Notes under the pieces: generated by a model | What the model saw: only the letters and a program-made list of their open reading frames with translations | Told to the model about the DNA's origin: nothing | The model's database searches: none | Shown here: positions 10,796 to 64,000 of the stretch, piece after piece | How the letters are laid out: every line of letters starts with the position of its first letter | How positions within the stretch are numbered: the first letter of the stretch is position 1 | Translations under genes and position numbers: made by a program | From: Octopus vulgaris | Lineage: Eukaryota | DNA: 64,000 nt | Assembly: GCA_951406725.2 (NCBI GenBank) | Contig: OX597815.1 | Coordinates: forward strand, 57,226,001-57,290,000 | Reading direction: 5' to 3'

Positions 10796-10847
10796 TATAT
10801 CATCGACATAGGCAAACACAAAATCAAGACCGCGGACAACCTCATCA

Positions 10848-22840: not shown

Positions 22841-22878
22841 TATAATTAAAGTGGTTTAAAATTTTCTTTGCTTTTTAG

Positions 22879-24477: not shown

Positions 24478-27400
24478 ATACGGGATCCTCTACCATCATA
24501 TGTTGTGGTGTGTTCCATTCTAGTTTTCTATTCAGGTTAGGTTTATTTTCTATTATGTGTGTAACTTCTGTAATTTGTCTGATTGTTGCATCTGTTCTAT
24601 GTGTGGGCAATATTTTAATGTTGATGATTGATCCCCTGTGTTCCTGTTCGGCTTGTTGGTACTGAGTCGATGAGCTTTTACCTTCCTTGAGTTGTCTCCA
24701 ATGTCCATTTACCCGCTCTCCTATGCTTCTTGCCGTTTCCCCTACGTATGTCGTTGTCTTGTTACTGCATCGTCTCTCTTATACTATAGACTACATTTCT
24801 GGCTTTACAGATTTAACTTAGACAGATTTTAGGATTATACACTAAGAGAATAAGACAGAGGCCAAACAACTCGGGATTAAACCTTGCATGTGGCCTACGT
24901 AAGCTCATTCAGCGCACGAGGAAGGGAGAGGTGGTATGCCTTCCCACAGATAAGTCCGGCAAGATGTCAATAGACAGCTTACCGAACTACATCCAGGCAA
25001 TACAAATATAACAACTTTACAGGTGCATGAGAAGAGAGAAAAGGTCCTCAACGCCCACATGATGATGTGGACAATTGTTCTGGGACCCCAGAAACGTACA
25101 GCAAATAATTTCCAAGCCTGGAACAATGATATCCCGGCACTGTATGGACTTCGCAAGGACCATAAAGTAACCACTGACCCTATAGCAGGACCACCAGCAA
25201 GACCAGTCTGTGGAGCGAATATCGCTAGCAATTACAGAATCTCCTACTTCCTCTCAATTATCATACGCCCTATAATCCGGATGTCACCTGATTTTTGTGA
25301 CAGCACAGAAGATCTCCTCAGCAGGATCAATGACTGTAACAACACTTGTGACCTGACAGGATGTATGGTGGGTAGCATGGATGTGGTATCCCTATACCCA
25401 TTGATCGACGTAGCTTTTGCGGTGGAGAAGTGCGTGGAGATGATCAATGAGAGCCAGGTGGAGTTCCATAATGTCAACACAGAGGAACTGGGCCTCCTAC
25501 TTAGACTGACATGTGACAATGAATACCTAGATAAACATAATCTTAGGAGTTTCTGCCCCAGTAGATGTTTAAGAGGTAGACCACCCACAATTACTTCTAT
25601 GGCTAGGAAGACACATATAGAAAGATGGCGCAGATGAACCAGAGCCATACGGATACCGCAAATGTCCATCAGGTAAAGAAAATGATCGCACATGCACTAG
25701 GAGCTAGTATAAGAGTTACCCTAAAAGGCCACACGTTTAAGTTTAACAATAAAATATATGCCCAGGACGAGGGGGCAGCCATCGGCGTTAGTATCGCTGG
25801 TGATGTGGCCAACCTTTTCATGGTATGGTGGGACAGAAGGCTTAAAGAACGCCTAACACAGAACTCCATACTACTAAACGTACTCTCGCTATGTTGATGA
25901 TATCAACATAGTGGTAAAAGCACCCCCACAAGAGAGTACTGTTGATATAGTAATAGAAACTAATACTATGTAGAGCATCCAGCAAATAGCTAACTCCATC
26001 CACCAGAGTATTAAGGTCACAATAGACTACTCCACTAAACACCCCAACCATAGACTACCAGTACTAGACACTGAACTCTGGCTAGAAATTGTGAATAATA
26101 AAACCCAAATCCTTTATTCATACTATGCCAAACCTATGGCCTCAAAATACTTGATCCACCGGAACTCAGCCATTGCGGACAATGCCAAATTCAATATTTT
26201 GATGGCAGACCTCGTCAGAATAATGAGAAATGTGTCACGCATGTGCGAGCCTACAGAGTTAAAGAGACACATACAATATTTCATTCACCGCATGCAGTTC
26301 TCAGGTTACAGCCATAAAGAAAAGAGCCATGAAGAAATTTGATAATGTATTATGTAATGATAGGAATGAGATTTGCCCACTCTATAGGAACAAGTCATGG
26401 AACACTATAGGGAAGGCCAACTCTTGGTATGATAGCCATAAATACCAGAGTATCATGTTCGTTGACACCACCCCTGGAGGTGAACTGCCGTACCGCTTTA
26501 GACGGACCCTAGACAAACGGATTAAGGTTGTTTAAGCCAGGCAACCCTATCACATCTATAATTAGTAGAACCTATCCTTTTAGTAGGACCCCCTGTACGG
26601 ATAAGTACTGTACTGTATGTAGATTTAGCCCACAAACAAACTGTAAAGCCAGAAATGTAGTATATAGTATAAAATGTATAGAGGGACGATGCAGTAACAC
26701 GACAACGACATACGTAGGGGAAACGGCAAGAAGCATAGGAGAGCGGGTAAATGGACATTGGAGACAACACAAGGAAGGTAAAAGCTCATCGATTCTGTAC
26801 CAACACGCCGAACAGGAACACGGGGGATCAATCAACAACATAGAAATTAAAATATTGTCCACACATAGAACAGATGCAACAATCAAACAATTTACAGAAG
26901 TTACACACATAATAGAAAATAAACCTAACCTGAATAGAAAACTAGAATGGAACACTAACACTAGCACACACCACAACATATGATGTAGAGGATCCCGAAA
27001 ACATAAGATAAATAAACAAATAGAAATAAATTACTATATATATATATTTTTTCGATTTCTTATTATTACTAGTATTGTTGTTATACATACATACATACAT
27101 ACATACATACATACATACATACATACAAGCATATGTAATAATAATAATAATAATAAGTGGATGTAAACACGTGAACGAAATAAGAATAAACAATAACAAA
27201 AACAAATTTATGAACGTATATAAACAGAAGATACAGATATTACAGGCATCCCCCACACACACACACTAAATAAACATAGACACACATAGAGATATAAGCA
27301 GGCGCAAGTGAAGACATACAATAGAAATACAAAATGGCTGACGGTTAGTAAGGAGAGACACAAATGAGAAAGAAGAAAACAAAGGACCACTGATGCGGTC

Positions 27401-27480
27401 ACAGGAGTGTGACGAAAGAACTCTGGCCGAAATAAGATTAAGATTAATGTAAAAAATAAATAACACTGAAGCAAAGTAAC
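24478..27480 (+). mobile_element. Penelope-like retroelement (RT + GIY-YIG endonuclease), frameshifted, with inverted 5' copy of its 3' end
   Basis: LYGLRKDHK, ARPVC, SMDVVSLYP, GAAIG, YVDD (25890-25901); VVYSIKC...YVGETARSIGER. 24478-24810 is the reverse complement of ~26640-26997. Confidence 0.9.
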
Positions 27481-27675
27481 ACCAAATATATAGTGCGTGT
27501 GTTTTTATTGGCTAAACCGGCAAAATGACCATTCCGAAATATAACAATATCTGTTTCAACACACGACTTCACATAAAAATTCTTGCGCAACAAATATATA
27601 AACGTATATATATAGACATACATACGTAAGTAAATACATAGATACATATATTTATATATGCATACATGCATAGAT

Positions 27676-36100: not shown

Positions 36101-37363
36101 TGACTATCCAGCGTTGGCCGACCCGTAAGCTCATGGGTCTGTTTCCGTTGACTTACGGGTTGGACCACTTCGTTGTATTTACCCGATGCATATCGCCATA
36201 GACTCCCGGCGACTGAAGGGATCGGTCGCGACTACGTCCACGTGTACGTTTGTGATACCGCGAGCTTCGATTCGGTTTTACTAGATCGGGCACGGTAACG
36301 CGGCGTAGCTCCGGGCGACTGGCGCAGGCCTGGCGCAACTGTACCGCTGGTGGCCCCTACCTATAGTAGCCGCAGTTGTCATTTTCGGGAATTTACGGGA
36401 CGGACCACGTCGCAATATCGACTGCATGTATCTCGTGACAGCCCTCCGGTATCTCTCGCGGGTACGGCCACGCGTACTTGGGCGATACCGCTAGCTTAGG
36501 TTCGTTCTTTCGATATCGGGAACGGTAACGCGGCGGAGCCCAAGGTGACTGGCGCAAGCCTGCCGCAGGCGGCCCCTACCAATGCAAGCCGTACTTGCCA
36601 TCTTTCGGGAATTTACGCGAAGGAACACGTCTGTGTATGGACCGCGTGTATCTCGTGACAGCCTTCCGGCATCGGTCGCGGGTACATCCACATGTACGTG
36701 GGCGATACCCCGAGCTTAGGTTCGTTCTTTCGATATCGGGCATGGTAGAGCGGCGGAGCAACATGCGAGCGGCGCAGGCCTGCCGCTGGCGGCCCCTCGG
36801 AGCGTAGTCGAACGGTGAAAGCAAGGTGGAGTGAAGGCGGCGGCCACCCGCCGGGCTGACGGCGTCTTAGGCTGACGTCTCAGGCTTCGTGCGTCGTCGA
36901 TAACACCGATAACACACGGACACACACACTCGTGGTCTTCGTCGATAACGTCGTATACTACTCAGACTCTTTACCTGCCGACCGACCGGCCGCACTCGTG
37001 CTCGATACCTCTCCCGACGACCGAGAACTCGCCCGAACAGGATGGCTCGGAGGTACACGACTTTTATTTTACGTCAGGTTCCTCAGCATAAACCGATCAC
37101 CCAGTGTACGCGCACAGTTACGAGCTGGCGTTTCTTCTACTTCTCATTTAGACGAGCGCATGACGATGCGTGCTCGATTCCGGGGGTAAGACGATGAAGA
37201 CGATTACGACGACCGCTAAGTCGTTCGCCGCCGCAAACACTTCGTCGCCCCACCCGACCATCGCGATCAACGAACGGCGGAGGATAACGACGCCACCTCC
37301 GCCACTTGATCGCGCTTTAGTTTGCCATCTTTCGCACCTCACCTCCTCCTTCCGCCTCGAAGG

Positions 37364-37928
37364 GACGAATCGTGTCGTTCGCGAGAAGCGACTCAATAAA
37401 TCGCACTGTGGTAGCTGCTCTACTAAGCACGTCATACCGAACGGCAAGTCGAATCGTCTGCAAGCGATCCCTTTCGTCTCGATCTCTTCGAACGAGTCAG
37501 AGCGGGCCGCGTAGACGACGACGACGGAGCCACCGCCGGCGACGCTGCCGCTCGCCGCGCGAACGCGACGGGCGGACGGCGAACGCCGAGCTAAGCCATG
37601 CGCTTTGAGGTTGAGACGCTTTTGGAAAACAACTCGTGTCCAGCTACGGTTCCGGCTTAGAGGCGTTCAGCCGTTATCGCTCAGACGCAGCCTGGCCCCA
37701 CCGCTCTATCGAGTGAGTGAGCAAACCGTTGCTCTAATCATGCGGTTCCTCTCGTACTGGACGGGATAACCGTAGACGAATTGACGTTGCTGACGCCCGC
37801 CTAAGGTCGGCCGGAGAAGCGGCGGCGGCAGCCACGACGGACGACGCGCGAGCGCTCCGCCGCCTAAGCGCACGCCGAGAACCCCGACGCGACTCGGGGC
37901 GCCGCGTACGCGCGATGCATCGGTAGGA

Positions 37929-37975
<47 letters not shown>

Positions 37976-38058
37976 GTTAGTGGGTGAACAATCCAACGCT
38001 TTGAGAATTCTGCCTCGCAATGATAGGAAGAGCCGACAACGAAGGATCAAAAAGCGAC
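37364..38058 (-). rRNA. 28S: 28S rRNA 3'-terminal fragment (orphan/pseudogene)
   Basis: Reverse complement contains gtcgctttttgatccttcg..gtcggctcttcctatcattg, gagctgggtttagaccgtcgtgagacaggttagttttatcctac, the sarcin-ricin loop agtacgagaggaacc (37744-37758) and ctgaacgcctctaag. Confidence 0.93.
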
Positions 38059-38088
38059 ATCAAGAGGCGGGCAAAATCGGACGTCCAG

Positions 38089-38187
38089 AGGCGGGCGAAG
38101 GCGGGCGAAGGCGGGCGAAGGCGGGCGAAGGCGGGCGAAGGCGGGCGAAGGCGGGCGAAGGCGGGCGAAGGCGGGCGAAGGCGGGCG
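38089..38187. repeat. (GCGGGCGAAG)n 10-bp minisatellite, 9+ copies
   Basis: Perfect tandem copies. Confidence 0.97.
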
Positions 38188-38307
38188 TGAAGATGCGGGC
38201 GAACGCAGCGTCTGAAAGGCGGGCGGTGTGGCGGCGGAAATTCGAGGATGCGCCAGCCGTGTAGAGTCGATCTTGCACCGGCAAACGGGGAGCTAACCGT
38301 TGGCAGA

Positions 38308-38337
38308 AATACGCTACCGGAGCTGGAATTACCGCGG
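38308..38337 (-). rRNA. Short 18S rRNA-like fragment (530-loop region)
   Basis: Reverse complement ccgcggtaattccagctccggtagcgtat matches conserved 18S ccgcggtaattccagctccaatagcgtat. Confidence 0.6.
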
Positions 38338-41300
38338 AAATGGGCGACGAGAAAATCCCTTTCAGACGGTCACCTATGCCGATCAGCCACAACCCTACAT
38401 AGTAGTCTGGACCCCCTTGGGATGCGACGGTCACCTAGAGCGTGACTATCCAGCGGGGGGCGACCCACAAGCTTACGGGTCTGATTATTTTAACTTACGA
38501 GTCTGACCACGTCGCTGTATTTACCCGGTGCATATCGCCACAGACTCCCGGCGACTGACGGCGTTGGGAATTTACGGGATGGACCACGTTAGTGTATCGA
38601 CAGCGTGTATCTCGTGACAGCCTTACGGCATCGGTCGCGGGTACGTGTACGTGGGCGATACCCCGAGCTTAGGTCCGTTCTTTCGATTTCGGTAACGTTA
38701 GCGCGGTGGAGCAACGGGCGACCGGCGCAGGCCTGTCTCCGGCGGCCCCGCGACGCATAGACGAACGGAGAAAGCAAGGTGGCGTGAAGGCAAGCGGCCA
38801 GCCGTTGGGCTGACGACGTCTTAGGCTGACGTCTCCGGCATCATGCCTAACGATCCCCGAGACATCCACCTGCCGACTGCTAGGCCTCAATATAGTCTGG
38901 ATCCTTTTGGGGTGCAACGGTCACCTACAGCGTGACTATCCAGCGTGGGCAGACCCGTCAGACCCGCCGCAGTGACGTGGTCCGTCCAGTAAATTCCCGA
39001 AAGATGACAGCCAGAGGCATGGTTGCACCAGGCGTGCGCCAGTCGCCCGGAACTCTACCGTGCCCAATCAAGTAAGACCGAATCAATGCTCACGGTATCA
39101 CAAACGTACACGTGGGCGTAGCCGCGACCGATCCCGTCAGTCGCCGAGAGTCTGTGGCGATATGCACCGGGTAAATACAACGACGTGGTCCGACCCCTAA
39201 CTTAACGGAAACCGACCCGTGAGCTTATGGGTCGGCCCACGCTTGATAGTCACGCTCTAGGTGAACGTTGCACCCCAAGGGGCTCCAGACTATATTGAGG
39301 GCTAGCATTCGGCAGGTGGATGTCTCTTGCATCGTCCGTCAAGATGCCTGACTCCTCAGCCTAAGACGCCGTGAGCCCGGCGGATGGCCGCCGCCTTCAC
39401 GCCATCTTGCTTTCACGTTTCGATTAATCGCCAAAGCTCCTCCGCGCTACCGTGCATGATCTAGTAAGTACGAATCGAAGCTAACAGTATCGCCGATGCA
39501 CACGTGGGGAGTCTGTGGGGATATACACCGGGTAAATACAACGACGTGGTCCGACCTGTAACTTAACGGAAACAGACCCGTGAGCTTACAGGTCGGCCCA
39601 CGCCGGATAGTCACGCTCAAGGTGGCCATCGCACCCCAAGGGGTTCCAGACTATATTGAGGGCTAGCTGTCAGCAGATGGATGTCTCCGGCATCGATCGT
39701 CAAGATGCCTGACACGTCAGCCTAATACGCCGTCAGCCCGGTCACTGCGGCTAGTATAGGTAGAGGCCGCCAGCGATAGGCCTGCGCCAGGCCTACGCCA
39801 GGCCTGCGCCAGTCGCCTGGAGCTCCGACGCGCTACCGTGCCCGATATAGAAAGAAGGAATCGAAGCTAGCGGTATCGCTCACGTACACGTTGACGTAGC
39901 CGCTCAATATAGTTTGGAACCCCTTGGGATGCGACGGTCAACTAGAGCGTGACTATCCAGCGTGGATCGACCCGTAAGCTCACGGGTCTATTTCCGTTAA
40001 CTTACGAGTCGGTCCGCGTCGTTGTATTTACCAGGTGCATAGCGCAACAGACTCAGGACGACTGACGGGATCGGTTGCGGTTACGTCCACGTGTACGTGA
40101 GCGATACCGCTAGCTTCGATTCCTTCTTTCTATATCGGGCACGGTAGCACGGCGGAGCTCCGGGCGACTGGCGGAGGCCTGGCGTTTACCTGGCGCAGGC
40201 CTTGCGTAGGCCTGTCGCAGGCCTCTACCTATACTAGCCGAATAGTCGAACAGGGAAAACATGGCGCAAACCCACCTCTGGCGGCCCCTACCTATACTAG
40301 CCGCAGTTGTCTTCTTTCGGGAATTTATGGGACGGACCACGTCACTGTAACAACCGCTTGTATCTCGTGACAGACTTCGGCATCGGTCGAGGGTACGTCC
40401 ACATGTAACGTGGGCGATACCGCAAGGTGAGGTTCGTTCTTTCGATATCGGGCACGGTAGCGCGGCCGAGTAACGGGCGGACGGCGCCGGCCTGCCGCTT
40501 GCGGCCCCGCGGCGCGTAGTCAAACGATGAAAGCACGGCGTCGTGAAGGCGGCGACCACCCGCCGGGCTAACGGCGTCTTAGGCTGACGTCTCAAGCATC
40601 TTACCGAACGATCCCGGAGACATCCACCTGTCGACTGCTAGCCCTCAATATAGTCTGGACCCCCTTGGTGTGCGACGGTCAACTAGAGACTTACTATCCA
40701 GCGTGGGCCGACCCGAAAACTCGCGGGTCGTTTTTCGTTAACTTATTGGTCGGACCACGTCGTTGTATTTACCAGGTGCATATCGCAACAGACTCCCGGT
40801 GACTGACGGGATTGGTCGCGGCTACGACCACGTGTAACATGGGCGATACCGCTAGCTCCGATTCGTTCTTTCTATATCGGGCACGGTAGCGCAGCGGACC
40901 TCCGGGCGACTGGGGCTGGCCTGCCGCTGGCGACACAGCGGCGCGTAGGCGAACAGGGAAAGCGAAGTGGCGTTAAAGCGGCGGCCACCCGCCGGGCTCA
41001 TGGTTTCTCAGGCTGACGTCTCAGACATCATGCCGATTGATCCCGGAGACATTCATCTGCCGACTGCTAGCCCTCAATATAGTCTGGAACCCCTTGGGGT
41101 GCGACGGTCACCTAGACCGTGACTATCCAGCCAGGGCCGACCCATCAGCTAACGGGTCTGTTTCCGTTAACTTATGGGTCGGACCACGTGCATATCGTCA
41201 GACTCTCGGCGACTGACGGGATCGGTCGCGGCTACGTACACGTGTGCATAGTTCTTACTAGATCATGCACGCTAGCGAGGCGGAGCTCCGGGCGACTGGC

Positions 41301-43014
41301 GCAGGCCTGCCGCTGTCACCCCCTACCTATAAGAGCCGCAGTTGTTATCTTTCGGGAATTTACGGGACGGACTACGTCACTGTATCGACCGCTTGTATCT
41401 TTCGATATCGGGCACGGTAGTGCGCCGGAGCAAGGGGCGACCGGCGCAGGCCTGCCGCTTGGGACCCCCCTGCGCGTATTCGATCGGTGAACGCACGGCA
41501 GCGTGTAGGCGGTGGTAGTATAGGTAGGGGGCGCCAGAGGTGGGTTTGCGCCATGTTTTCCCTGTTCGACTATTCGGCTAGTATAGGTAGAGGCCTGCGA
41601 CAGGCCTACGCAAGGCCTGCGCCAGGCATACGCCAGGCATACGCCAGGCCTCCGCCAGTCGCCCGGAGCTCCGCCGTGCTACCGTGCCCGATATAGAAAG
41701 AAGGAATCGAAGCTAGCGGTATCGCTCACGTACACGTGGACGTAGCCGCAACCGATCCCGTCAGTCGCCCTGAGTCTGTTGCGCTATGCACCTCGCGTGT
41801 ATTCCGTGACAGAGATCCGGCATCGGTCGCGGCTACGTCCAAGCGTACGTGGGCGATACCGCTTGCTTAGGTTCATTCTTCCGATATCGGGCACGGTTGC
41901 GTGATGGAGCAACGGGCGACCGGCGCAGCCCTGCCGCTGCGAACAGGGAAAGAAAGGTGAAAGCAAATTGGCGTGAAGGCGGCGGCCACCCGCCGGACTG
42001 ACGGCATCATAGGCTGACGTCTCAGCTATCTTGCCGAACGAGCCCGGAGACATCCACCTGCCGAATGCTAGACCTCAATATAGTCTGAAACCTCCTGGGG
42101 TGCGACGGTCAACTAGAGCGTGACTATCCAGTCGGGGCCGACCCACAAGCTTAAGGGTCTGATTTTTCTAACTTACGGGTCGAACCACGTCGTTGTACTT
42201 ACCCGGTACATGCCCGGTGACTGACGGCATCGGGAATTTACGGGATGGACCACGTCACTGTATCGACCGCATGTACCTTTCGATATCGGGCATGGTACGT
42301 GGGCGACACCTCGAGCTTTGATTCGTTCTTAATAGGTCGGGCATGGTAGCGCAGCGAAGCTCGGGGCGACTCCGCAAACCCTGCCACTGTCGGGCTCTAC
42401 CTATACTAGCCGTAGTTGTTATCTTTTGGGAATATTCGGGACGGACCACGTCGCTGTATTGACCGCGTGTATTTGATGACAGAGATCCGGCATCGTTCGC
42501 GGCTACGTCCTCGCGTACGTGGGCGATACCGTTAGCTTAGGTTCGTTCTTTCGATATCCGGCACGGTAGCGCGGCGGAGCACCGGGTGCCTGGCGCAGCC
42601 TGCCGCTGGCACAATGCGACGCGAAATAGAACGGTGAAAGCAAGGCAGCGTGAAGGCGGCGGCCACCCGCCGGGCTGAGTTCGTCTTTGGCTGACGTCTC
42701 AGCTATCTTCCCGAACGATCCCGAAGACATCCACCTGCCGACTGCTAGGCCTCAATATAGTCTTCCGGCTATATTGTCTATATATAGACTTCCGGCGACT
42801 GAAAGGATCGGTCGCGTGGACGTGCACGTGTGTGCATATAAGTGACTCTAGAAGATATTTTTTAGTTATCTCCCTTAAATTTATCATCAACAGAAGATAC
42901 AATTTTTTAATGTCTTCAGTTATTTCACTGCGGCCATGCCAGAACCTATTCTTTAATTTTAATTTAAGGGAGATTACTAAAAAAAATTTCTTTTAGAGTT
43001 ACTTCCCTTATCTT

Positions 43015-43046
<32 letters not shown>

Positions 43047-43048
<2 letters not shown>

Positions 43049-46000
43049 ACGTAAGGGACTAAAGCCATCTGAATATGGCTAGGGACAGGGCAGGGTGGTG
43101 GGGGTGTTACTGTTGCATTTAGCCCCAGGCGAACATCGACGTCACCAGAAAGGCTCGACACCGTCACGGTGCCCTAAACCTGCAAAGGGAGGTAATTCCC
43201 CGATGAAGCGGAAACCACACACGGACCATGGTTTCAAGGTGTATTGCCTATCATCGGCGTGTGGTAGGCCTCCGCTTCCTCGACGAATTCTCACTATGCA
43301 GGATTTCTTATATAGATTTTCAAGCAAAATACATTTGCTGATTTCGAAAATCTGTTCGAAAGCAATAATAATTCTCTAAAAGGGATATAGACAGTAACTG
43401 CTCGATAACATAAGGGACTAAAGCCATCTGAATATGGCTAGGGACAGGGCAGGGTGGTGGGGGTGTTACTGTTGCATTTAGCCCCAGGCGAACATCGACG
43501 TCACCAGAAAGGCTCGACACCGTCACGGTGCCCTAAACCTGCAAAGGGAGGTAATTCCCCGATGAAGCGGAAACCACACACGGACCATGGTTTCAAGGTG
43601 TATTGCCTATCATCGGCGTGTGGTAGGCCTCCGCTTCCTCGACGAATTCTCACTATGCAGGATTTCTTATATAGATTTTCAAGCAAAATACATTTGCTGA
43701 TTTCGAAAATCTGTTCGAAAGCAATAATAATTCTCTAAAAGGGATATAGACAGTAACTGCTCGATAACATAAGGGACTAAAGCCATCTGAATATGGCTAG
43801 GGACAGGGCAGGGTGGTGGGGGTGTTACTGTTGCATTTAGCCCCAGGCGAACATCGACGTCACCAGAAAGGCTCGACACCGTCACGGTGCCCTAAACCTG
43901 CAAAGGGAGGTAATTCCCCGATGAAGCGGAAACCACACACGGACCATGGTTTCAAGGTGTATTGCCTATCATCGGCGTGTGGTAGGCCTCCGCTTCCTCG
44001 ACGAATTCTCACTATGCAGGATTTCTTATATAGATTTTCAAGCAAAATACATTTGCTGATTTCGAAAATCTGTTCGAAAGCAATAATAATTCTCTAAAAG
44101 GGATATAGACAGTAACTGCTCGATAACATAAGGGACTAAAGCCATCTGAATATGGCTAGGGACAGGGCAGGGTGGTGGGGGTGTTACTGTTGCATTTAGC
44201 CCCAGGCGAACATCGACGTCACCAGAAAGGCTCGACACCGTCACGGTGCCCTAAACCTGCAAAGGGAGGTAATTCCCCGATGAAGCGGAAACCACACACG
44301 GACCATGGTTTCAAGGTGTATTGCCTATCATCGGCGTGTGGTAGGCCTCCGCTTCCTCGACGAATTCTCACTATGCAGGATTTTCTTATATAGATTTTCA
44401 AGCAAAATACATTTGCTGATTTCGAAAATCTGTTCGAAAGCAATAATAATTCTCTAAAAGGGATATAGACAGTAACTGCTCGATAACATAAGGGACTAAA
44501 GCCATCTGAATATGGCTAGGGACAGGGCAGGGTGGTGGGGGTGTTACTGTTGCATTTAGCCCCAGGCGAACATCGACGTCACCAGAAAGGCTCGACACCG
44601 TCACGGTGCCCTAAACCTGCAAAGGGAGGTAATTCCCCGATGAAGCGGAAACCACACACGGACCATGGTTTCAAGGTGTATTGCCTATCATCGGCGTGTG
44701 GTAGGCCTCCGCTTCCTCGACGAATTCTCACTATGCAGGATTTCTTATATAGATTTTCAAGCAAAATACATTTGCTGATTTCGAAAATCTGTTCGAAAGC
44801 AATAATAATTCTCTAAAAGGGATATAGACAGTAACTGCTCGATAACATAAGGGACTAAAGCCATCTGAATATGGCTAGGGACAGGGCAGGGTGGTGGGGG
44901 TGTTACTGTTGCATTTAGCCCCAGGCGAACATCGACGTCACCAGAAAGGCTCGACACCGTCACGGTGCCCTAAACCTGCAAAGGGAGGTAATTCCCCGAT
45001 GAAGCGGAAACCACACACGGACCATGGTTTCAAGGTGTATTGCCTATCATCGGCGTGTGGTAGGCCTCCGCTTCCTCGACGAATTCTCACTATGCAGGAT
45101 TTCTTATATAGATTTTCAAGCAAAATACATTTGCTGATTTCGAAAATCTGTTCGAAAGCAATAATAATTCTCTAAAAGGGATATAGACAGTAACTGCTCG
45201 ATAACATAAGGGACTAAAGCCATCTGAATATGGCTAGGGACAGGGCAGGGTGGTGGGGGTGTTACTGTTGCATTTAGCCCCAGGCGAACATCGACGTCAC
45301 CAGAAAGGCTCGACACCGTCACGGTGCCCTAAACCTGCAAAGGGAGGTAATTCCCCGATGAAGCGGAAACCACACACGGACCATGGTTTCAAGGTGTATT
45401 GCCTATCATCGGCGTGTGGTAGGCCTCCGCTTCCTCGACGAATTCTCACTATGCAGGATTTCTTATATAGATTTTCAAGCAAAATACATTTGCTGATTTC
45501 GAAAATCTGTTCGAAAGCAATAATAATTCTCTAAAAGGGATATAGACAGTAACTGCTCGATAACATAAGGGACTAAAGCCATCTGAATATGGCTAGGGAC
45601 AGGGCAGGGTGGTGGGGGTGTTACTGTTGCATTTAGCCCCAGGCGAACATCGACGTCACCAGAAAGGCTCGACACCGTCACGGTGCCCTAAACCTGCAAA
45701 GGGAGGTAATTCCCCGATGAAGCGGAAACCACACACGGACCATGGTTTCAAGGTGTATTGCCTATCATCGGCGTGTGGTAGGCCTCCGCTTCCTCGACGA
45801 ATTCTCACTATGCAGGATTTCTTATATAGATTTTCAAGCAAAATACATTTGCTGATTTCGAAAATCTGTTCGAAAGCAATAATAATTCTCTAAAAGGGAT
45901 ATAGACAGTAACTGCTCGATAACATAAGGGACTAAAGCCATCTGAATATGGCTAGGGACAGGGCAGGGTGGTGGGGGTGTTACTGTTGCATTTAGCCCCA

Positions 46001-46771
46001 GGCGAACATCGACGTCACCAGAAAGGCTCGACACCGTCACGGTGCCCTAAACCTGCAAAGGGAGGTAATTCCCCGATGAAGCGGAAACCACACACGGACC
46101 ATGGTTTCAAGGTGTATTGCCTATCATCGGCGTGTGGTAGGCCTCCGCTTCCTCGACGAATTCTCACTATGCAGGATTTCTTATATAGATTTTCAAGCAA
46201 AATACATTTGCTGATTTCGAAAATCTGTTCGAAAGCAATAATAATTCTCTAAAAGGGATATAGACAGTAACTGCTCGATAACATAAGGGACTAAAGCCAT
46301 CTGAATATGGCTAGGGACAGGGCAGGGTGGTGGGGGTGTTACTGTTGCATTTAGCCCCAGGCGAACATCGACGTCACCAGAAAGGCTCGACACCGTCACG
46401 GTGCCCTAAACCTGCAAAGGGAGGTAATTCCCCGATGAAGCGGAAACCACACACGGACCATGGTTTCAAGGTGTATTGCCTATCATCGGCGTGTGGTAGG
46501 CCTCCGCTTCCTCGACGAATTCTCACTATGCAGGATTTCTTATATAGATTTTCAAGCAAAATACATTTGCTGATTTCGAAAATCTGTTCGAAAGCAATAA
46601 TAATTCTCTAAAAGGGATATAGACAGTAACTGCTCGATAACATAAGGGACTAAGCCATCTGAATATGGCTAGGGACAGGGCGGGTGGTGGGGGTGTTACT
46701 GTTGATAGCCCCAGGCGAACATCGACGTCACCAGAAAGGCTCGACACCGTCACGGTGCCCTAAACCTGCAA
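43047..46771 (-). repeat. 359-bp tandem array (~10.4 units), hammerhead motif on minus strand; candidate non-LTR retrozyme
   Basis: Near-identical units; ORF track recurs every 359 bp (one 360-bp unit); begins at (TA)n. Confidence 0.95.
43205..43278 (-). ncRNA. Type I hammerhead ribozyme-like motif (first of 10 copies in the left array)
   Basis: Reverse complement of the motif at 46875-46948. Confidence 0.7.
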
Positions 46772-49303
46772 TTTTAGAGAATTATTATTGCTTTCGAACA
46801 GATTTTCGAAATCAGCAAATGTATTTTGCTTGAAAATCTATATAAGAAATCCTGCATAGTGAGAATTCGTCGAGGAAGCGGAGGCCTACCACACGCCGAT
46901 GATAGGCAATACACCTTGAAACCATGGTCCGTGTGTGGTTTCCGCTTCATCGGGGAATTACCTCCCTTTGCAGGTTTAGGGCACCGTGACGGTGTCGAGC
47001 CTTTCTGGTGACGTCGATGTTCGCCTGGGGCTAAATGCAACAGTAACACCCCCACCACCCTGCTCTGTCCCTAGCCATATTCAGATGGCTTTAGTCCCTT
47101 ATGTTATCGAGCAGTTACTGTCTATATCCCTTTTAGAGAATTATTATTGCTTTCGAACAGATTTTCGAAATCAGCAAATGTATTTTGCTTGAAAATCTAT
47201 ATAAGAAATCCTGCATAGTGAGAATTCGTCGAGGAAGCGGAGGCCTACCACACGCCGATGATAGGCAATACACCTTGAAACCATGGTCCGTGTGTGGTTT
47301 CCGCTTCATCGGGGAATTACCTCCCTTTGCAGGTTTAGGGCACCGTGACGGTGTCGAGCCTTTCTGGTGACGTCGATGTTCGCCTGGGGCTAAATGCAAC
47401 AGTAACACCCCCACCACCCTGCCCTGTCCCTAGCCATATTCAGATGGCTTTAGTCCCTTATGTTATCGAGCAGTTACTGTCTATATCCCTTTTAGAGAAT
47501 TATTATTGCTTTCGAACAGATTTTCGAAATCAGCAAATGTATTTTGCTTGAAAATCTATATAAGAAATCCTGCATAGTGAGAATTCGTCGAGGAAGCGGA
47601 GGCCTACCACACGCCGATGATAGGCAATACACCTTGAAACCATGGTCCGTGTGTGGTTTCCGCTTCATCGGGGAATTACCTCCCTTTGCAGGTTTAGGGC
47701 ACCGTGACGGTGTCGAGCCTTTCTGGTGACGTCGATGTTCGCCTGGGGCTAAATGCAACAGTAACACCCCCACCACCCTGCCCTGTCCCTAGCCATATTC
47801 AGATGGCTTTAGTCCCTTATGTTATCGAGCAGTTACTGTCTATATCCCTTTTAGAGAATTATTATTGCTTTCGAACAGATTTTCGAAATCAGCAAATGTA
47901 TTTTGCTTGAAAATCTATATAAGAAATCCTGCATAGTGAGAATTCGTCGAGGAAGCGGAGGCCTACCACACGCCGATGATAGGCAATACACCTTGAAACC
48001 ATGGTCCGTGTGTGGTTTCCGCTTCATCGGGGAATTACCTCCCTTTGCAGGTTTAGGGCACCGTGACGGTGTCGAGCCTTTCTGGTGACGTCGATGTTCG
48101 CCTGGGGCTAAATGCAACAGTAACACCCCCACCACCCTGCCCTGTCCCTAGCCATATTCAGATGGCTTTAGTCCCTTATGTTATCGAGCAGTTACTGTCT
48201 ATATCCCTTTTAGAGAATTATTATTGCTTTCGAACAGATTTTCGAAATCAGCAAATGTATTTTGCTTGAAAATCTATATAAGAAATCCTGCATAGTGAGA
48301 ATTCGTCGAGGAAGCGGAGGCCTACCACACGCCGATGATAGGCAATACACCTTGAAACCATGGTCCGTGTGTGGTTTCCGCTTCATCGGGGAATTACCTC
48401 CCTTTGCAGGTTTAGGGCACCGTGACGGTGTCGAGCCTTTCTGGTGACGTCGATGTTCGCCTGGGGCTAAATGCAACAGTAACACCCCCACCACCCTGCC
48501 CTGTCCCTAGCCATATTCAGATGGCTTTAGTCCCTTATGTTATCGAGCAGTTACTGTCTATATCCCTTTTAGAGAATTATTATTGCTTTCGAACAGATTT
48601 TCGAAATCAGCAAATGTATTTTGCTTGAAAATCTATATAAGAAATCCTGCATAGTGAGAATTCGTCGAGGAAGCGGAGGCCTACCACACGCCGATGATAG
48701 GCAATACACCTTGAAACCATGGTCCGTGTGTGGTTTCCGCTTCATCGGGGAATTACCTCCCTTTGCAGGTTTAGGGCACCGTGACGGTGTCGAGCCTTTC
48801 TGGTGACGTCGATGTTCGCCTGGGGCTAAATGCAACAGTAACACCCCCACCACCCTGCCCTGTCCCTAGCCATATTCAGATGGCTTTAGTCCCTTATGTT
48901 ATCGAGCAGTTACTGTCTATATCCCTTTTAGAGAATTATTATTGCTTTCGAACAGATTTTCGAAATCAGCAAATGTATTTTGCTTGAAAATCTATATAAG
49001 AAATCCTGCATAGTGAGAATTCGTCGAGGAAGCGGAGGCCTACCACACGCCGATGATAGGCAATACACCTTGAAACCATGGTCCGTGTGTGGTTTCCGCT
49101 TCATCGGGGAATTACCTCCCTTTGCAGGTTTAGGGCACCGTGACGGTGTCGAGCCTTTCTGGTGACGTCGATGTTCGCCTGGGGCTAAATGCAACAGTAA
49201 CACCCCCACCACCCTGCCCTGTCCCTAGCCATATTCAGATGGCTTTAGTCCCTTATGTTATCGAGCAGTTACTGTCTATATCCCTTTTAGAGAATTATTA
49301 TTG

Positions 49304-49304
<1 letters not shown>
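46772..49304 (+). repeat. Inverted 359-bp tandem array (~7 units), hammerhead motif on plus strand
   Basis: Reverse complement of the left array; ends in (TA)n. Confidence 0.95.
46875..46948 (+). ncRNA. Type I hammerhead ribozyme-like motif (first of 7 copies in the right array)
   Basis: gaagcgga-ggcctac-CACACG-CCGAUGA-u-AGG-caauaca-CCU-u-GAAA-CC-au-GG-UC^-CGUGUG-ugguu-uccgcuuc. Helices I, II and palindromic III all pair; GUC triplet, predicted cut after 46929. Confidence 0.72.
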
Positions 49305-49335
<31 letters not shown>

Positions 49336-49349
49336 AGATATATATATGT

Positions 49350-50290
49350 TTATTCCCCGATGTCTCAGCTATCTTGCCGAACGATGTTTTCTTTAGTTAT
49401 CTCCCTTACATCTGTCATTAACAGAATACAAGGGAAGTAACTCTTAAAGATGTTTTCTTTAGTTATCTCCCTTACATCTGTCATAAACAGAATACAAGGG
49501 AAGTAACTCTTAAAGTTGTTTTCTTTAGTTATCTCCCTTAAATTGTCTTTACCAGAATACAAGGGAGATAACTCTTAAAGATGTTTTCTTTACTTATCTC
49601 CCTTACATTTGTCAGTAACAGAAGATACAATTTTTTACTATTTTCCGTTATTTCACTGCGGCCGTGCTCCAGTCGACCAAATAGACCCCAGAACCTATTC
49701 CTTGTAGGCATAGTACTTAATCTATCGGCCTGTTTTGCTGAACCTATCAGTTACGGGGATGTGAACACACCAGCGTCGGTTGTCATGCGATGTTCGGGGG
49801 ATAAACAGATATACAAACGTGTGCGTAATCTCCCTTACATCTGTCATTAACAGAATACAAGGGAAGTAACTCTTAAAGATGTTTTCTTTAGTTATCTCCC
49901 TTACATTTGTCAGTAACAGAAGATACAATTTTTTACTATTTTCAGTTATTTCACTGCGGCCGTGCACCAATCGACCAAATAGACCCCAGAACCTATACTT
50001 TGTAGGCATAGTACTTAATCTATCAGATGGTTTTGCTGAACCCATCAGTTACGGGGACGTGAACACACCAGCATCGGTTATGATGCGATGTTTGGCAGGT
50101 TCTGGGGTCTATTTGGTCGACTGGAAATAACTGAAATTAGTAAAAAGATTGTATCTTCTGTTGATGACAAATAACTAAAAGGGAGATAACTAAAAAAAAA
50201 CATCTAGATTAACTTCATATATAAATACGTGTGTATGTCTGTTTATCCCCCGAAATCGCATCACAACTGATGCTGGTGTGTTCACCAGCT
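49350..50290. repeat. Short-period repeat (gttatctcccttac...acagaatacaagggaagtaactc) interleaved with SINE 3' fragments
   Basis: Same family at 42840-43010 and 62870-63560, i.e. flanking all 359-bp arrays. Confidence 0.75.
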
Positions 50291-50470: not shown

Positions 50471-50519
50471 ATATATACGTATGTGAATGTATTTATGTAT
50501 GTGTGATCATTATTTCACT

Positions 50520-53500
50520 ATTATTTCACACAGATTTTTATACATAGATTTTCATAACTAGATTTTCATACATAGACTTTAATACATACCTTGAATTTTA
50601 TATATACATAGATATATACTTAGATTTTCCTGCATGTATGTATGAAAAACTATGTACGAAAATGTATGAAAATCTATCTATGAAAATGTATATAAATCTA
50701 CGTACGAAAATGTATGTATGAAAATCTAGTTATGAATATGTATGTGTGTATAAAGATCTAAGTATGAAAATATATGTTACGTACAAAAATCGATGTATGA
50801 AAATTTAGGAAAAATTGGAATAAATTCATTGATTTCCATATAGAAATAGATAGATTTATGGATGCTTGAAAATTGTACGAAAATTGTCATAATCTCATTG
50901 AGTTTCATACATACATAGATTTCCATACGTTGAATTTTATACAGACATAGGAGAAAATCTGAAAAGCGATGTATGACAATTTTCAAACGTAGATTTTGAG
51001 GCATAAATAGATTTCATAGCTAAATATTCATACATACATTTGCATACCTAGATTTTTATCAATGAAAGTAATAAATTCGATTTATTAAAATCTGTACACA
51101 TAAAAACTAATATATGTATAAAAATCTATGAATGTATAAAAATCAATCTATGCATAAAAATCAATGTCTAAAAATCAATGTATGAAAATCTATGAAAATT
51201 TATGTATAAAATTCAACGTATGAAAATCCAGGTATGTTTCAAATCTAGGTATGTATGACAATTTTCATGCATTGGTGTTAATACATAGGTTTTAAAACAT
51301 AATCTTTCTATGAAAACCTATGTATATTTGAGAATCTATGTATGACAAATTTCATACATAGATTTGGATGCATATAAAGATTTTTATACATTAATTTTCA
51401 TGCATATATAGATTTCCATACGTTTTCAGGTATAGATTTTTACATATATCTAGATTTTCATACATAGATCTTCTACATATGAAAATCTGTAAATGAAAAT
51501 CTATGCTCGAAAACCAATGTATGTATGAAATTCAATGAATAAAAATTTATAAACCTCTGAAAATATATGTATGTATGAAAATGTATGTATGAAAATGTTA
51601 TACATAAAGAACTACACATTGATAGGTATAAAAATTTATGTATGCATAAATATCTAGGTAATAAGATGATGTAAGTACAAATATATATGTATGAAAATCG
51701 AAGCATATATAAACGTATGAAAATCTAGGTATGAATCTGTATGAAAATCTGCATAAAAATCAGTATGAAAATCAATAAATAAAAATCCATTTATGTTTCA
51801 TGATAAATGTATGAAAATCTATATGTATAAAATTCAATGTATTAAAATCTGTATGTATGCATACGTCTAAAAAATCTGTTTGTCTGAAAATCTATGTATG
51901 AAAATCAATATATGTCTGACAATTTTTATATATAGATTTTCATTTTATATATAGATTTTACATACATCGATTTTTATACATTGATTTTAATACATACATG
52001 CATATATGCATACCTAAATATTCATACGTACATTTTCATACCTAGATAATCAACGATGTATGTTTAAAATTCAACGTATGTATGAAAATCTGCATGTATA
52101 CATAGACTTCATATCTAGATTTTATACATTGATTTTGATACAAGGATTTCATTCATACATACATAAATCTATAAATCTATAGAATTCTATGTATAACAAT
52201 TTATATACATACATACATTTTCATAACTAAATTTTCAAACAAATATTTCGTAGACATTCTTATTTATATATGAATATGTACGTACAAAAATTTAGATATA
52301 GAGGAAAATCTAGGTACGAAAATTGTCATAATCTCATTGAGTTTCATACATACATAGATTTCCATACGTTGAATTTTATACAGACATAGGAGAAAATCTG
52401 AAAAGCGATGTATGACAATTTTCAAACGTAGATTTTGAGGCATAAATAGATTTCATAGCTAAATATTCATACATACATTTGCATACCTAGATTTTTATCA
52501 ATGAAAGTAATAAATTCGATTTATTAAAATCTGTACACATAAAAACTAATATATGTATAAAAATCTATGAATGCATAAAAATCAATCTATGCATAAAAAT
52601 CAATGTCTAAAAATCAATGTATGAAAATCTATGAAAATTTATGTATAAAATTCAACGTATGAAAATCCAGGTATGTTTCAAATCTAGGTATGTATGACAA
52701 TTTTTAAGACATTAATTTTCATGCATTGGTGTTAATACATAGGTTTTAAAACATATTCTTTCTATGAAAACCTATGTATATTTGAGAATCTATGTATGAC
52801 AAATTTCATACATAGATTTGGATGCATATAAAGATTTTTATACATTAATTTTCATGCATATATAGATTTCCATACGTTTTCAGGTATAGATTTTTACATA
52901 TATCTAGATTTTCATACATAGATCTTCTACATATGAAAATCTGTAAATGAAAATCTATGCTCGAAAACCAATGTATGTATGAAATTCAATGAATAAAAAT
53001 TTATAAACCTCTGAAAATATATGTATGTATGAAAATGTATGCATAAATATCTAGGTAATAAAATGATGTAAGTACAAATATATATGTATGAAAATCGAAG
53101 CATATATAAACGTATGAAAATCTAGGTATGAATCTGTATGAAAATCTGCATAAAAATCAGTATGAAAATCAATAAATAAAAATCCATTTATGTTTCATGA
53201 TAAATGTATGAAAATCTATGTACGTATGAAAATCAATGTATGTATAGAAATGTATAAATCTGTGTATGAAAAATCAATGTATGTATGACAATGTTCGATT
53301 TTCATACATCGATTTTTATACATACATTTTTATACCTAAATTTTCATCTATGTATGTATAAAATTCAATGTATTAAAATCTGTATGTATGCATAGACTTT
53401 CATATATATATATTATACGTCTGAAAAATCTGTTTGTCTGAAAATCTATGTATGAAAATCAATATATGTCTGACAATTTTTATATATAGATTTTCATTTT

Positions 53501-56500
53501 ATATATTGATTTTAATACATACATGCATATATGCATACATAAATATTCATACATACATTTTTATACCTAGATAATCAACGATGTATGTTTAAAATTCAAC
53601 GTATGTATGAAAATCTGCATGTATACATAGACTTCATATCTAGATTTTATACATTGATTTTGATACAAGGATTTCATTCATACATACATAAATCTATAAA
53701 TCTATAGAATTCTATGTATAACAATTTATATACATACATACATTTTCATAACTAAATTTTCAAACAAATATTTCGTAGACATTCTTATTTATATATGAAT
53801 ATGTACGTACAAAAATTTAGATATAGAGGAAAATCTAGGTACGAAAATTGTCATAATCTCATTGAGTTTCATACATACATAGATTTCCATACGTTGAATT
53901 TTATACAGACATAGGAGAAAATCTGAAAAGCGATGTATGACAATTTTCAAACGTAGATTTTGAGGCATAAATAGATTTCATAGCTAAATATTTATACATA
54001 CATTTGCATACCTAGATTTATATCAATGAAAGTAATAAATTCGATTTATTAAAATCTGTACACATAAAAACTAATATATGTATAAAAATCTATGAATGTA
54101 TAAAAATCAATCTATGCATAAAAATCAATGTCTAAAAATCAATGTATGAAAATCTATGAAAATTTATGTATAAAATTCAACGTATGAAAATCCAGGTATG
54201 TTTCAAATCTAGGTATGTATGACAATTTTTAAGACATTAATTTTCATGCATTGGTGTTAATACATAGGTTTTAAAACATATTCTTTCTATGAAAACCTAT
54301 GTATATTTGAGAATCTATGTATGACAAATTTCATACATAGATTTGGATGCATATAAAGATTTTTATACATTAATTTTCATACATATATAGATTTCCATAC
54401 GTTTTCAGGTATAGATTTTTACATATATCTAGATTTTCATACATAGATCTTCTACATATGAAAATCTGTAAATGAAAATCTATGCTCGAAAACCAATGTA
54501 TGTATGAAATTCAATGAATAAAAATTTATAAACCTCTGAAAATATATGTATGTATGAAAATGTATGTATGAAAATGTTATACATAAAGAACTACACATTG
54601 ATAGGCATAAAAATTTATGTATGCATAAATATCTAGGTAATAAGATGATGTAAGTACAAATATATATGTATGAAAATCGAAGCATATATAAACGTATGAA
54701 AATCTAGGTATGAATCTGTATGAAAATCTGCATAAAAATCAGTATGAAAATCAATAAATAAAAATCCATTTATGTTTCATGATAAATGTATGAAAATCTA
54801 TATGTATAAAATTCAATGTATTAAAATCTGTATGTATGCATAGACTTTCATATATATATATATTATACGTCTAAAAAATCTGTTTGTCTGAAAATCTATG
54901 TATGAAAATCAATATATGTCTGACAATTTTTATATATAGATTTTCATTTTATATATAGATTTTACATACATCGATTTTTATACATTGATTTTAATACATA
55001 CATGCATATATGCATACCTAAATATTCATACGTACATTTTCATACCTAGATAATCAACGATGTATGTTTAAAATTCAACGTATGTATGAAAATCTGCATG
55101 TATACATAGACTTCATATTTAGATTTTATACATTGATTTTGATACAAGGATTTCATTCATACATACATAAATCTATAAATCTATAGAATTCTATGTATAA
55201 CAATTTATATACATACATACATTTTCATAACTAAATTTTCAAACAAATATTTCGTAGACATTCTTATTTATATATGAATATGTACGTACAAAAATTTAGA
55301 TATAGAGGAAAATCTAGGTACAAAAATTGTCATAATCTCATTCAGTTTCATACATACATAGATTTCCATACGTTGAATTTTATACAGACATAGGAGAAAA
55401 TCTGAAAAGCGATGTATGACAATTTTCAAACGTAGATTTTGAGGCATAAATAGATTTCATAGCTAAATATTCATACATACATTTGCATACCTAGATTTTT
55501 ATCAATGAAAGTAATAAATTCGATTTATTAAAATCTGTACACATAAAAACTAATATATGTATAAAAATCTATGAATGTATAAAAATCAATCTATGCATAA
55601 AAATCAATGTCTAAAAATCAATGTATGAAAATCTATGAAAATTTATGTATAAAATTCAACGTATGAAAATCCAGGTATGTTTCAAATCTAGGTATGTATG
55701 ACAATTTTTAAGACATTAATTTTCATGCATTGGTGTTAATACATAGGTTTTAAAACATATTCTTTCTATGAAAACCTATGTATATTTGAGAATCTATGTA
55801 TGACAAATTTCATACATAGATTTGGATGCATATAAAGATTTTTATACATTAATTTTCATGCATATATAGATTTCCATACGTTTTCAGGTATAGATTTTTA
55901 CATATATCTAGATTTTCATACATAGATCTTCTACATATGAAAATCTGTAAATGAAAATCTATGCTCGAAAACCAATGTATGTATGAAATTCAATGAATAA
56001 AAATTTATAAACCTCTGAAAATATATGTATGTATGAAAATGTATGTATGAAAATGTTATACATAAAGAACTACACATTGATAGGCATAAAAATTTATGTA
56101 TGCATAAATATCTAGGTAATAAAATGATGTAAGTACAAATATATATGTATGAAAATCGAAGCATATATAAACGTATGAAAATCTAGGTATGAATCTGTAT
56201 GAAAATCTGTATAAAAATCAGTATGAAAATCAATAAATAAAAATCCATTTATGTTTCATGATAAATGTATGAAAATCTATGTACGTATGAAAATCAATGT
56301 ATGTATAGAAATGTATAAATCTGTGTATGAAAAATCAATGTATGTATGACAATGTTCGATTTTCATACATCGATTTTTATACATACATTTTTATACCTAA
56401 ATTTTCATCTATGTATGTATAAAATTCAATGTATTAAAATCTGTATGTATGCATAGACTTTCATATATATATATATTATACGTCTAAAAAATCTGTTTGT

Positions 56501-62620: not shown

Positions 62621-63179
62621 AGCACTCAGAAACTAAGGTAACTTGCTTTCAAAATTAGCATTTTGAAAGCAAGTTAACTTCGTTTCTGAGCGCTAAAAAT
62701 TAAAAAGTTAAACTTTCTTTGAAAATGCTAATAATGATCAGCTAGGTACACACACATATATAAATACATTCACATACGTATATATTTCTGCTGCTTAAAA
62801 CAAAGCATATGGTATTTGAGTACTCTTTTTTCCCCCTTGTTTCACATTTATGTAATTCTATATATATAAATATAGATGTTTTTTTTAGTTATCTCCCTCG
62901 TCAAGAGAAGATACAATTCTTTTATACAATTTTTTTACTATTTTCAGTTATTTCCAGTCTAGCAAATAGACCCCAGAACCTGCCTATTGATGGAGTTAAA
63001 TTTAAGGGAGATAACTAAAAATAGATTAAGTACTATGCCTACAAAGAATAGGTTCTGGGGTCTATTTGGTCGACTGGATCACGGCCGCAGTGAAGTAACT
63101 GAAAATAGTAAAAAATTGTATCTTCTGTTGATGACAAATTTAAGGGAGATAACTAAAAAATATCTTCTAGAGTTACTTC

Positions 63180-63221
<42 letters not shown>

Positions 63222-63560: not shown

Positions 63561-63590
<30 letters not shown>

Positions 63591-63592
<2 letters not shown>

Positions 63593-64000
63593 ACATAAGG
63601 GACTAAAGCCATCTGAATATGGTTAGGGACAGGGCAGGGTGGTGGGTGTGTTACTGTTGCATTTAGCCCCAGGCGAACATCGACGTCACCAGAAAGGCTC
63701 GACACCGTCACGGTGCCCTTAACCTGCAAAGGGAGGTAATTCCCCGATGAAGCGGAAACCACACACGGACCATGGTTTCAAGGTGTATTGCCTATCATCG
63801 GCGTGTGGTAGGCCTCCGCTTCCTCGACGAATTCTCACTCTGCAGGATTTTCTTATATAGATTTTCAAGCAAAATACATTTGCTGATTTCGAAAATCTGT
63901 TCGAAAGCAATAATAATTCTCTAAAAGGGATATAGACAGTAACTGCTCGATAACATAAGGGACTAAAGCCATCTGAATATGGCTAGGGACAGGGCAGGGT
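63591..64000 (-). repeat. Start of a third 359-bp array (hammerhead motif at 63749-63822, minus strand), running off the window
   Basis: Same unit and same start phase as 43047, with a few substitutions. Confidence 0.92.

Follow-up and report, generated by a model that had tools for sequence, protein, structure and literature searches.

A 64,000-nucleotide stretch of the Octopus vulgaris genome (contig OX597815.1 of assembly GCA_951406725.2, positions 57,226,001 to 57,290,000 of the forward strand; hereafter the window) carries, at 43047..49304, an array of a 359-bp repeat with a type I hammerhead motif in each unit. With high probability the array represents one insertion of a young, dispersed, non-coding repeat, the copying of which into a (TA)n tract was likely the work of the reverse transcriptase (RT)-endonuclease of a Penelope-like element (PLE). 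An earlier note on this DNA had proposed that the repeat is a retrozyme without long terminal repeats (non-LTR retrozyme) with a type I hammerhead, and this assignment is supported because of the covariation of the helices, the existence of sister families and a dispersal with retrotransposition signatures.

The head-to-head array and its dispersed relatives

Tandem repeats of period 359 and 99% matches were found by Tandem Repeats Finder (TRF) at 43046-46771 (10.4 copies) and 46772-49305 (7.1 copies), giving in total 17.4 units in the interval, most of them 100% identical to 47132-47490. The core motif occurs 17 times in 43047..49304 (10 on the minus strand and 7 on the plus strand) and once more at 63801 (minus strand), so that the previous count of about 17 nearly identical units is borne out. 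The array is tandem within its arms, as had been described, but it had been missed that two arms are joined 5' end to 5' end (head-to-head) with two fixed ends and with (TA)n bordering both sides. With 46930, the base that follows the predicted cut, taken as unit position 1, the layout is as follows.

43015..43045, no strand: (TA)n target tract, left flank (TRF)
43046..46771, minus strand: left arm, 10.4 units with 10 hammerhead motifs; the RNA 3' end (43046) is unit position 178 and the truncated 5' end is position 39
46771..46772, no strand: head-to-head junction of both 5'-truncated arms, the position of which differs among loci
46772..49305, plus strand: right arm, 7.06 units with 7 hammerhead motifs; the 5' end is unit position 202 and the 3' end is position 222
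49262..49305, plus strand: 44-nt 'tail', unit positions 179-222, found at the end of one arm only (arm-end comparison)
49306..49347, no strand: (TA)n target tract, right flank (TRF)
47073..47090, plus strand: hairpin of 6 bp at 17 nt upstream of the 178 end, retained in the sister family B described below; candidate RT recognition element
63590..64000, minus strand: second two-arm array, 16.4 units (8.2 + 8.2) with ends 178 and 222, extending past the window to about 57295470 of the contig (L060)

The extra copy that had been placed near 63591 is present (the motif at 63801), but it is no lone unit: it opens the second array, which is an independent insertion of a slightly older haplotype. The RNA ends that had been predicted at 46929/46930 plus multiples of 359 hold for the plus arm and are limited to it, because the first 10 units lie on the minus strand. 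About six small differences were found in the final 130 nt of the left arm before the junction. No open reading frame (ORF) of at least 120 aa was found within the array, which consists of short non-coding units in tandem, each bearing a type I hammerhead, and lacks LTR, primer-binding site and polypurine tract; this is the composition of a non-LTR retrozyme. An AT-rich repeat family (42840-43015, 49360-50100 and 62870-63590) adjoins both retrozyme arrays, each of which is placed in the TA tract ending a copy of this family; a perfect palindrome of the family surrounds the (TA)n tract at 63160-63241.

The 2.8-Gb assembly was searched with exact patterns. The core pattern gave 862 matches and the two end-plus-TA patterns gave 757 and 533, respectively, on many chromosomes, with none for the reversed controls; the repeat is dispersed and mobile, with at least 757 insertion ends. 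The family is young, many of its units being identical. For the arm architecture, 141 loci were examined, 61 of them taken via unit or core matches and 80 via ends (of the 78 listed ends that lacked a partner, 19 were left out), and were classified as two-arm loci with ends 178 and 222 (106), two-arm loci with one odd end (5), two-arm loci with an end off the stretch (2), single arms (25) and stubs (3). Among the 113 two-arm loci, therefore, 106 pair 178 with 222 and none pairs 178 with 178 or 222 with 222. Arm ends lie exactly at 178 or 222 in 216 of 251 cases, and (TA)n follows the arm end in 230 of 244 arms. The position lists alone, drawn from the first listed ends over the same span (100 of the 222 type and 66 of the 178 type), gave the same picture, with 43 of 44 neighbouring end pairs within 12 kb being outward-facing 178/222 pairs and none like with like. 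The 38 loci found via unit matches and not via ends comprised 26 178/222 pairs, 3 loci with one odd end and 9 single arms. At targets other than pure TA a duplication of 10-12 bp is seen, with 4 clear cases among 111 (L035, L037, L199 and L323), the rest being hidden in TA.

The hallmarks given for PLEs are a 5'-truncated copy in inverted orientation, a tail of 30-40 bp confined to one end and a bias to microsatellites (bioRxiv 2021.04.23.441226, PMC3846280). Here, the inverted 5'-truncated copy with a tail on one end only and the microsatellite or AT-rich target with a short duplication were both found, and on this signature PLE-type mobilisation of the 359-bp repeat is judged very probable. 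It was considered whether the inversions might have arisen by fold-back during long-read sequencing or assembly, the repeat being an ordinary satellite that resembles a hammerhead by chance. The clustering of small errors beside the window's junction and the absence of an Rfam match for the window version would agree with this, whereas the occurrence in 106 of 113 loci of arms that differ in their fixed end, the unequal arms, the distinct flanks and the target duplications, together with the covariation and the four families reported below, refute it for the family as a whole, and its probability is taken to be close to nil.

Hammerhead fold and its conservation

The hammerhead of one copy on the plus strand was delineated from the sequence, pair counts and variants.

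46883..46940, plus strand: type I hammerhead, one copy
46883-46886/46937-46940, plus strand: closing pairs
46887-46889 with U46936, plus strand: loop-1 triplet
46890-46895/46930-46935, plus strand: helix I
46896-46902, plus strand: core, with C at position 4
46903/46917, plus strand: U.U mismatch at 10.1-11.1 (base of helix II)
46904-46906/46914-46916, plus strand: helix II
46918-46921, plus strand: GAAA
46921-46928, plus strand: palindromic helix III
after 46929, plus strand: predicted cut

Helix I, the core, helix II, GAAA, palindromic helix III and the cut site were all recovered at the positions at which the earlier note had drawn them, and the 81-nt hammerhead region folds with z=-4.3 versus 200 shuffles. 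The motif had been called complete; its three-helix topology with helix I open stands, but its core is non-canonical. Relative to the consensus core (C3 U4 G5 A6 N7 G8 A9, G12 A13 A14 A15, U16 H17 and a pair at 10.1-11.1), the window core deviates by C4 (U4C) and by U10.1.U11.1 and thus departs from the strict consensus; both deviations are present in all 362 young cores counted. The proposed check with Rfam Hammerhead_1 (RF00163) failed for the window version, with no hammerhead match on 46800-47500 at E<=10 (the gathering score was not reached) and none among the 150 of 299 matches listed for the whole window.

Both deviations have reported precedents in natural, weaker ribozymes: infectivity is retained by a viroid variant with U4C, and no mismatch at 10.1-11.1 is tolerated better than U.U (PMC3088659). 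The monomer folded as a circle is highly self-paired (z=-4.9), and helix III forms self-duplexes of -9.8 to -11.4 kcal/mol, the strength of which fits dimeric cleavage as in PMC4209133. Helix I is preceded by a UAC or UGC triplet and followed by a U in family A, to which the window's unit belongs, and in the sister families B (UAC in 16 of 17) and C (26 of 31). This triplet and U may match the contact between loop 1 and loop 2 of the Schistosoma hammerhead.

Pair counts were taken on 19 natural copies (342 cells), with 500 shuffles and slid controls. Of the cells, 94.2% were paired; the slid controls gave 26-55% and none of the 500 shuffles was as high, a test that is inflated by kinship in that related sequences may beat shuffles without any structure. 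Changes on both sides were found in just 2 of 18 pairs. Seven of the 19 rows have U-A in place of C-G in helix I, every one of the 19 copies carries U-A, U.G or C-G as its 3-8 tertiary pair, and helix III switches between the perfect palindromes ACCUAGGU and ACCAUGGU, a third form having a G.U. The tree of 35 copies (core columns included; midpoint root on families B and C) is a ladder on which the core runs from UUGAUAA through UUGAUGA/UUGACGA and CCGACGA to the window's CCGAUGA, while divergence from the window unit drops from 11-14% to <1%. Across the 11-14% divergence G5, A6, A9, GAAA, U16.1 and the pairing of helix I are intact, and the 3-8 pair is back to Watson-Crick in the youngest clade. 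U4 is carried by the older subfamilies and the sister families, and one older copy (L309) matches Rfam Hammerhead_1 with 26.7 bits and E=0.008, below the gathering score of 34. The relatives of family A are as follows.

L053:820-1161: sister family B, own hammerhead, two-end architecture, 2261 first-look candidates
L177:190-490: sister family C, own hammerhead, two-end architecture, 2554 first-look candidates
L186:5947-6180: sister family D, own hammerhead, single occurrence
L021:800-1145: sister retrozyme copy, own hammerhead

Families B, C and D are homologous to family A downstream of the ribozyme and have the same fold with different helix sequences; family B shares the 44-nt offset between ends, and in family C it is about 59. 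U3-A8 with U4 was found in 48 of the 49 sister-family motifs listed, the remaining one being canonical, and no Rfam hammerhead was returned for families B, C and D in the 6 loci scanned. The conservation or covariation of the helices in related repeats for which the earlier note had asked is seen in compensatory changes along the subfamily ladder and in the three sister families. The fold is under constraint, because pairing is kept in the older subfamilies and in families B, C and D with different helix sequences.

Several observations count against a working ribozyme of the window type. U4C lowers hammerhead activity considerably in vitro (PMC3088659), the pairing probability of helices II and III is <=0.08 in the circular fold of the monomer, and only 1 of 9 predicted Xenopus retrozyme dimers was cleaved (bioRxiv 2026.07.22.740005). 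Taken together with the precedents, the balance tips slightly towards a window-type ribozyme with measurable activity, and the fold of the unit is predicted to self-cleave weakly.

It may also be that the element is mobilised by a PLE, while the ribozyme of the window subfamily is dead or irrelevant and the templates are uncut linear multimers from existing arrays, with no circular RNA. This would suit U4C plus U.U in all young cores and the report that hammerhead mutants are without effect on PLE insertion in vitro, i.e. that insertion does not need the element's hammerhead (PMC11167929), as well as the frequent crossing of the cut site and the mosaic loci described in the next section. It is opposed by the retention of the core nucleotides and helix I pairing over 11-14% divergence with the return of the 3-8 pair to Watson-Crick, by the infectious U4C viroid variant and the tolerated U.U, and by the private variants given below, which require amplification of a single unit. 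This alternative is a serious one, placed somewhat below an even chance.

Template RNA and the route of insertion

In the end-ascertained set the predicted cut site is crossed by 105 of 180 arms, at least 2 times by 40 and at least 5 times by 10, and arms reach up to 15 units. A cut linear monomer yields at most 222 nt, therefore most templates were uncut multimers or re-ligated circles. Evidence of cleavage was sought in a pile-up of 5' ends at the cut site and was rejected, as the count of arm ends no more than 3 nt from it is 4 versus about 1.7 expected (hand estimate), which is not significant and suits a dead ribozyme.

For the analysis of template variants, 8 error-rich or complex loci were dropped, and 49 of the 53 remaining have at least 3 units. 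At 4 of the 49, a substitution absent from the other sampled loci is present in every unit, at 3 of the 4 across both arms (L051, 13/13; L202, 8/8; L204, 4/4), and amplification from a single unit at some point must therefore have occurred. Partly shared variants were found at 11 of the 49; 8 of these loci are true mosaics, not obtainable from a monomer circle, and the other 3 have a deletion at a common site. L037 has a haplotype switch with identical unit order in both arms, and so a multimer template is needed there. The private variants spanning both arms and the unit order of L037 speak for one template having served the two arms of a locus. Both kinds of template (circle and multimer), or later recombination, are possible, and circular RNA as the main template is viewed with some reserve, a little short of even.

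Another scenario (that of bioRxiv 2026.07.22.740005) is that PLE proteins insert monomers or short copies and that long arrays grow later through slippage or unequal crossing-over. In some arms (L045, L023, L028 and L021) shared variants stand in contiguous runs, which can be read in this way, and concerted evolution also gives homogeneous arrays. Long arrays, however, sit in the youngest copies, the cut site being crossed at least 2 times by 31 of 71 arms at <1.5% divergence, 6 of 47 at 1.5-4% and 3 of 62 at >=4%, a trend for which loss of long palindromes with age is an alternative explanation. Further, the truncation risk over later units is roughly even (0.1-0.25 per 100 nt), as RT drop-off would give, and the unit order of L037 is the same in both arms. 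Growth after insertion is accordingly considered improbable.

The stopping of arms was further analysed. At unit positions 49-67 (46978-46996) lies a hairpin where short arms often stop and join, with 10 first-pass ends at position 49. Short arms stop in excess at positions 14-60 (47 events/7367 nt versus 17/7980 on later passes), where the hairpin coincides; position-specific stopping was rejected as not separable from distance (5/2225 versus 10/2484). Both arms stop within 30 nt of each other at 23 of 107 loci (permutation mean 8.9, maximum 21), but coupled stopping fails for long arms (2 of 60, mean 3.4). A fold-back model with one cDNA was rejected because either arm may be longer (24 versus 23 of 80), and U4C as the cause of long arrays was rejected because the 2%-diverged subfamily carries U4C but has few long arms.

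Four sequencing runs were examined for the unit, and the candidate transcription signals are as follows.

47198..47228, plus strand: TATA-like box (47198-47204) and putative transcript start (47228), repeated per unit (sequence; one contig of run X1)

Run X1, of uncertain kind, yields one 402-nt contig (depth 10) of the ribozyme strand, which opens with 26 non-genomic letters joined to 47228 and then goes once round the unit; the letters are presumably a template-switch cDNA adaptor. Position 47228 is 30 nt after the first base of the TATA-like box, and such boxes lie 54-62 nt upstream of the core in families A, B and C. Contigs stepping back 359 nt (runs X1 and X14) fit a circle or a tandem alike. 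Runs under three other organism labels carry older unit haplotypes (relatives or mixed samples), and among the runs on record as RNA none contains the unit sequence, which was counted neither for nor against expression.

In PLE insertion in vitro, the protein cuts both strands of AT-rich DNA and starts reverse transcription at two internal sites, the interval between which is the tail (PMC11167929). By analogy, double priming by a PLE protein on multi-unit or circular RNA is the likely route for the 359-bp repeat. An internal TATA-type promoter in each unit would give sense transcripts beginning just 5' of the ribozyme. The multimers would be cut slowly, probably via dimeric helix III, and part of the products may be ligated into circles. 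The PLE protein would then nick both (TA)n strands about 10-12 bp apart, and on one and the same template the first cDNA would begin at position 178, the second at 222. Both cDNAs would pass uncut or re-ligated junctions for up to 15 units, and tandem arrays would therefore form at insertion; finally, the 3' ends of the two cDNAs would be joined head-to-head.

This route is weakened by the following points. Sense transcription starting at 47228 is no more than hinted at by one contig of a run of uncertain kind; later arm-to-arm conversion or unequal crossing-over could mimic the shared variants; and no match to the 359-bp unit was found in 78 PLE-bearing loci of a few families, with thousands more candidates in the genome. 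A more specific form of the same route would make the palindromic arrays direct footprints of rolling-circle reverse transcription, in which a PLE dimer writes two cDNAs from a single circular retrozyme RNA, beginning at two fixed sites with a spacing of 44 nt, of which each target strand uses strictly one. The master lineage would, in this form, have kept its hammerhead detuned throughout (from U3-A8 to U3.G8 and on to C3-G8 with U4C, the U.U in helix II being always present), and circles and multimers would thereby persist as templates. This form is put forward as speculative and rather unlikely.

Penelope-like elements, other features and known systems

The window itself contains a PLE.

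24490..27620, plus strand: Neptune-like PLE, decayed, one 5' piece of which is inverted; its ORF-bearing family is abundant and has the same architecture; a parallel to the 359-bp unit without sequence match, and no proven partner

This family numbers 7792 first-look candidates, of which many score identically, and its open frames reach 1312 aa, so that it was probably active recently; a hammerhead-like motif lies in the pseudo-LTR (pLTR) near 27385-27430. A second ORF-bearing Neptune-like family (L223-L248, e.g. L230:2667) has 781-aa frames and, in its pLTR, a U3-A8 hammerhead motif with palindromic helix III. The ORFs were identified by visible RT motifs, a weak GIY-YIG match and Atlas neighbours, and Pfam gave nothing on two long PLE ORFs. 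A tail on one arm at (TA)n was found in 6 of 8 loci of ORF-bearing PLEs, 2 being unreadable. As none of the 78 PLE loci matches the unit, the partner PLE was not identified: the two Neptune-like families were rejected for having their own tails (about 55 and 40 nt, respectively) and no match to the unit, and the tblastn matches near repeat loci were rejected as unrelated neighbours.

Elsewhere in the window, broken LTR-retrotransposon pol pieces (RT RNase H, integrase) with a partial duplication lie at 9400-13500, a probable exon of a class I SAM-dependent methyltransferase gene at 22860-23315 (plus strand; Methyltransf_11, E=1.5e-15), and a Pif1 helicase 2B fragment, probably a Helitron relic, at 32328-32933 (plus strand). 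The GC-rich 34500-42700 has short tandem repeats and includes, at 37367-38092 (minus strand), a degenerate 3' part of a eukaryotic large-subunit rRNA gene (Rfam 145 and 91 bits), which looks like an orphan rDNA fragment with spacer; a link of the array to this adjoining stretch is unsupported, other loci having unrelated flanks. At about 50500-58000 lies an AT-rich array with a period of about 1.45-1.55 kb (recurring TRF rows).

On its testable features, the 359-bp repeat is best placed with the metazoan non-LTR retrozymes of coral, mussel and axolotl (Cervera and de la Pena 2020, PMC7229834; newt satellite 2 as cited there). The common features are a non-coding tandem unit within the 150-450 bp range, GC <50%, a type I hammerhead whose helix I has 6 bp and whose palindromic helix III is short, and a highly self-paired monomer; axolotl HHR_Amex2 likewise has U.U at the base of helix II. 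It differs in the U4C core, in the circular RNA, which here is a prediction, and in the head-to-head insertions with two fixed ends in (TA)n, which are undescribed in the sections of PMC7229834 consulted. With the endonuclease-bearing PLEs that have an inverted pLTR and tail (Neptune, Naiad; bioRxiv 2021.04.23.441226, PMC3846280) and the PAc in vitro system (PMC11167929), the repeat shares the inverted 5'-truncated copy, the one-end tail, the (TA)n bias, duplications of about 10 bp and internal RT starts downstream of the hammerhead. Unlike these, it has no ORF, a canonical rather than minimal hammerhead, tandem arms of up to 15 units and a tail of 44 nt, versus 30-40 in the papers; moreover, both strands used both starts in the PAc system, whereas the genomic retrozyme arms use strictly one each.

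Mobilisation of retrozymes by PLEs has already been proposed (PMC7229834, PMC7761336, bioRxiv 2026.07.22.740005). The last of these, on vertebrate retrozymes (bioRxiv 10.64898/2026.07.22.740005), proposes a PLE origin and mobilisation on the evidence of co-occurrence and pLTR similarity, with local array growth after insertion; here the evidence is an insertion signature, and no pLTR homologue was found. No description of this family or of retrozyme insertions with inverted arms and tail was found in the literature consulted (the supplement of PMC7229834 may list more), and the main text of the 2026 octopus repeat annotation (PMC13282606) mentions no hammerhead, ribozyme or retrozyme.

The evidence for PLE mobilisation of retrozymes is unusually direct in this family, which bears both on the question of which enzyme mobilises animal retrozymes and on whether their arrays form during insertion. 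It supplies the in vitro PLE assay already available with a defined 359-nt substrate on which two RT start sites are predicted, poses a strict one-site-per-strand rule to be explained, and offers a dated ladder of natural hammerhead core variants.

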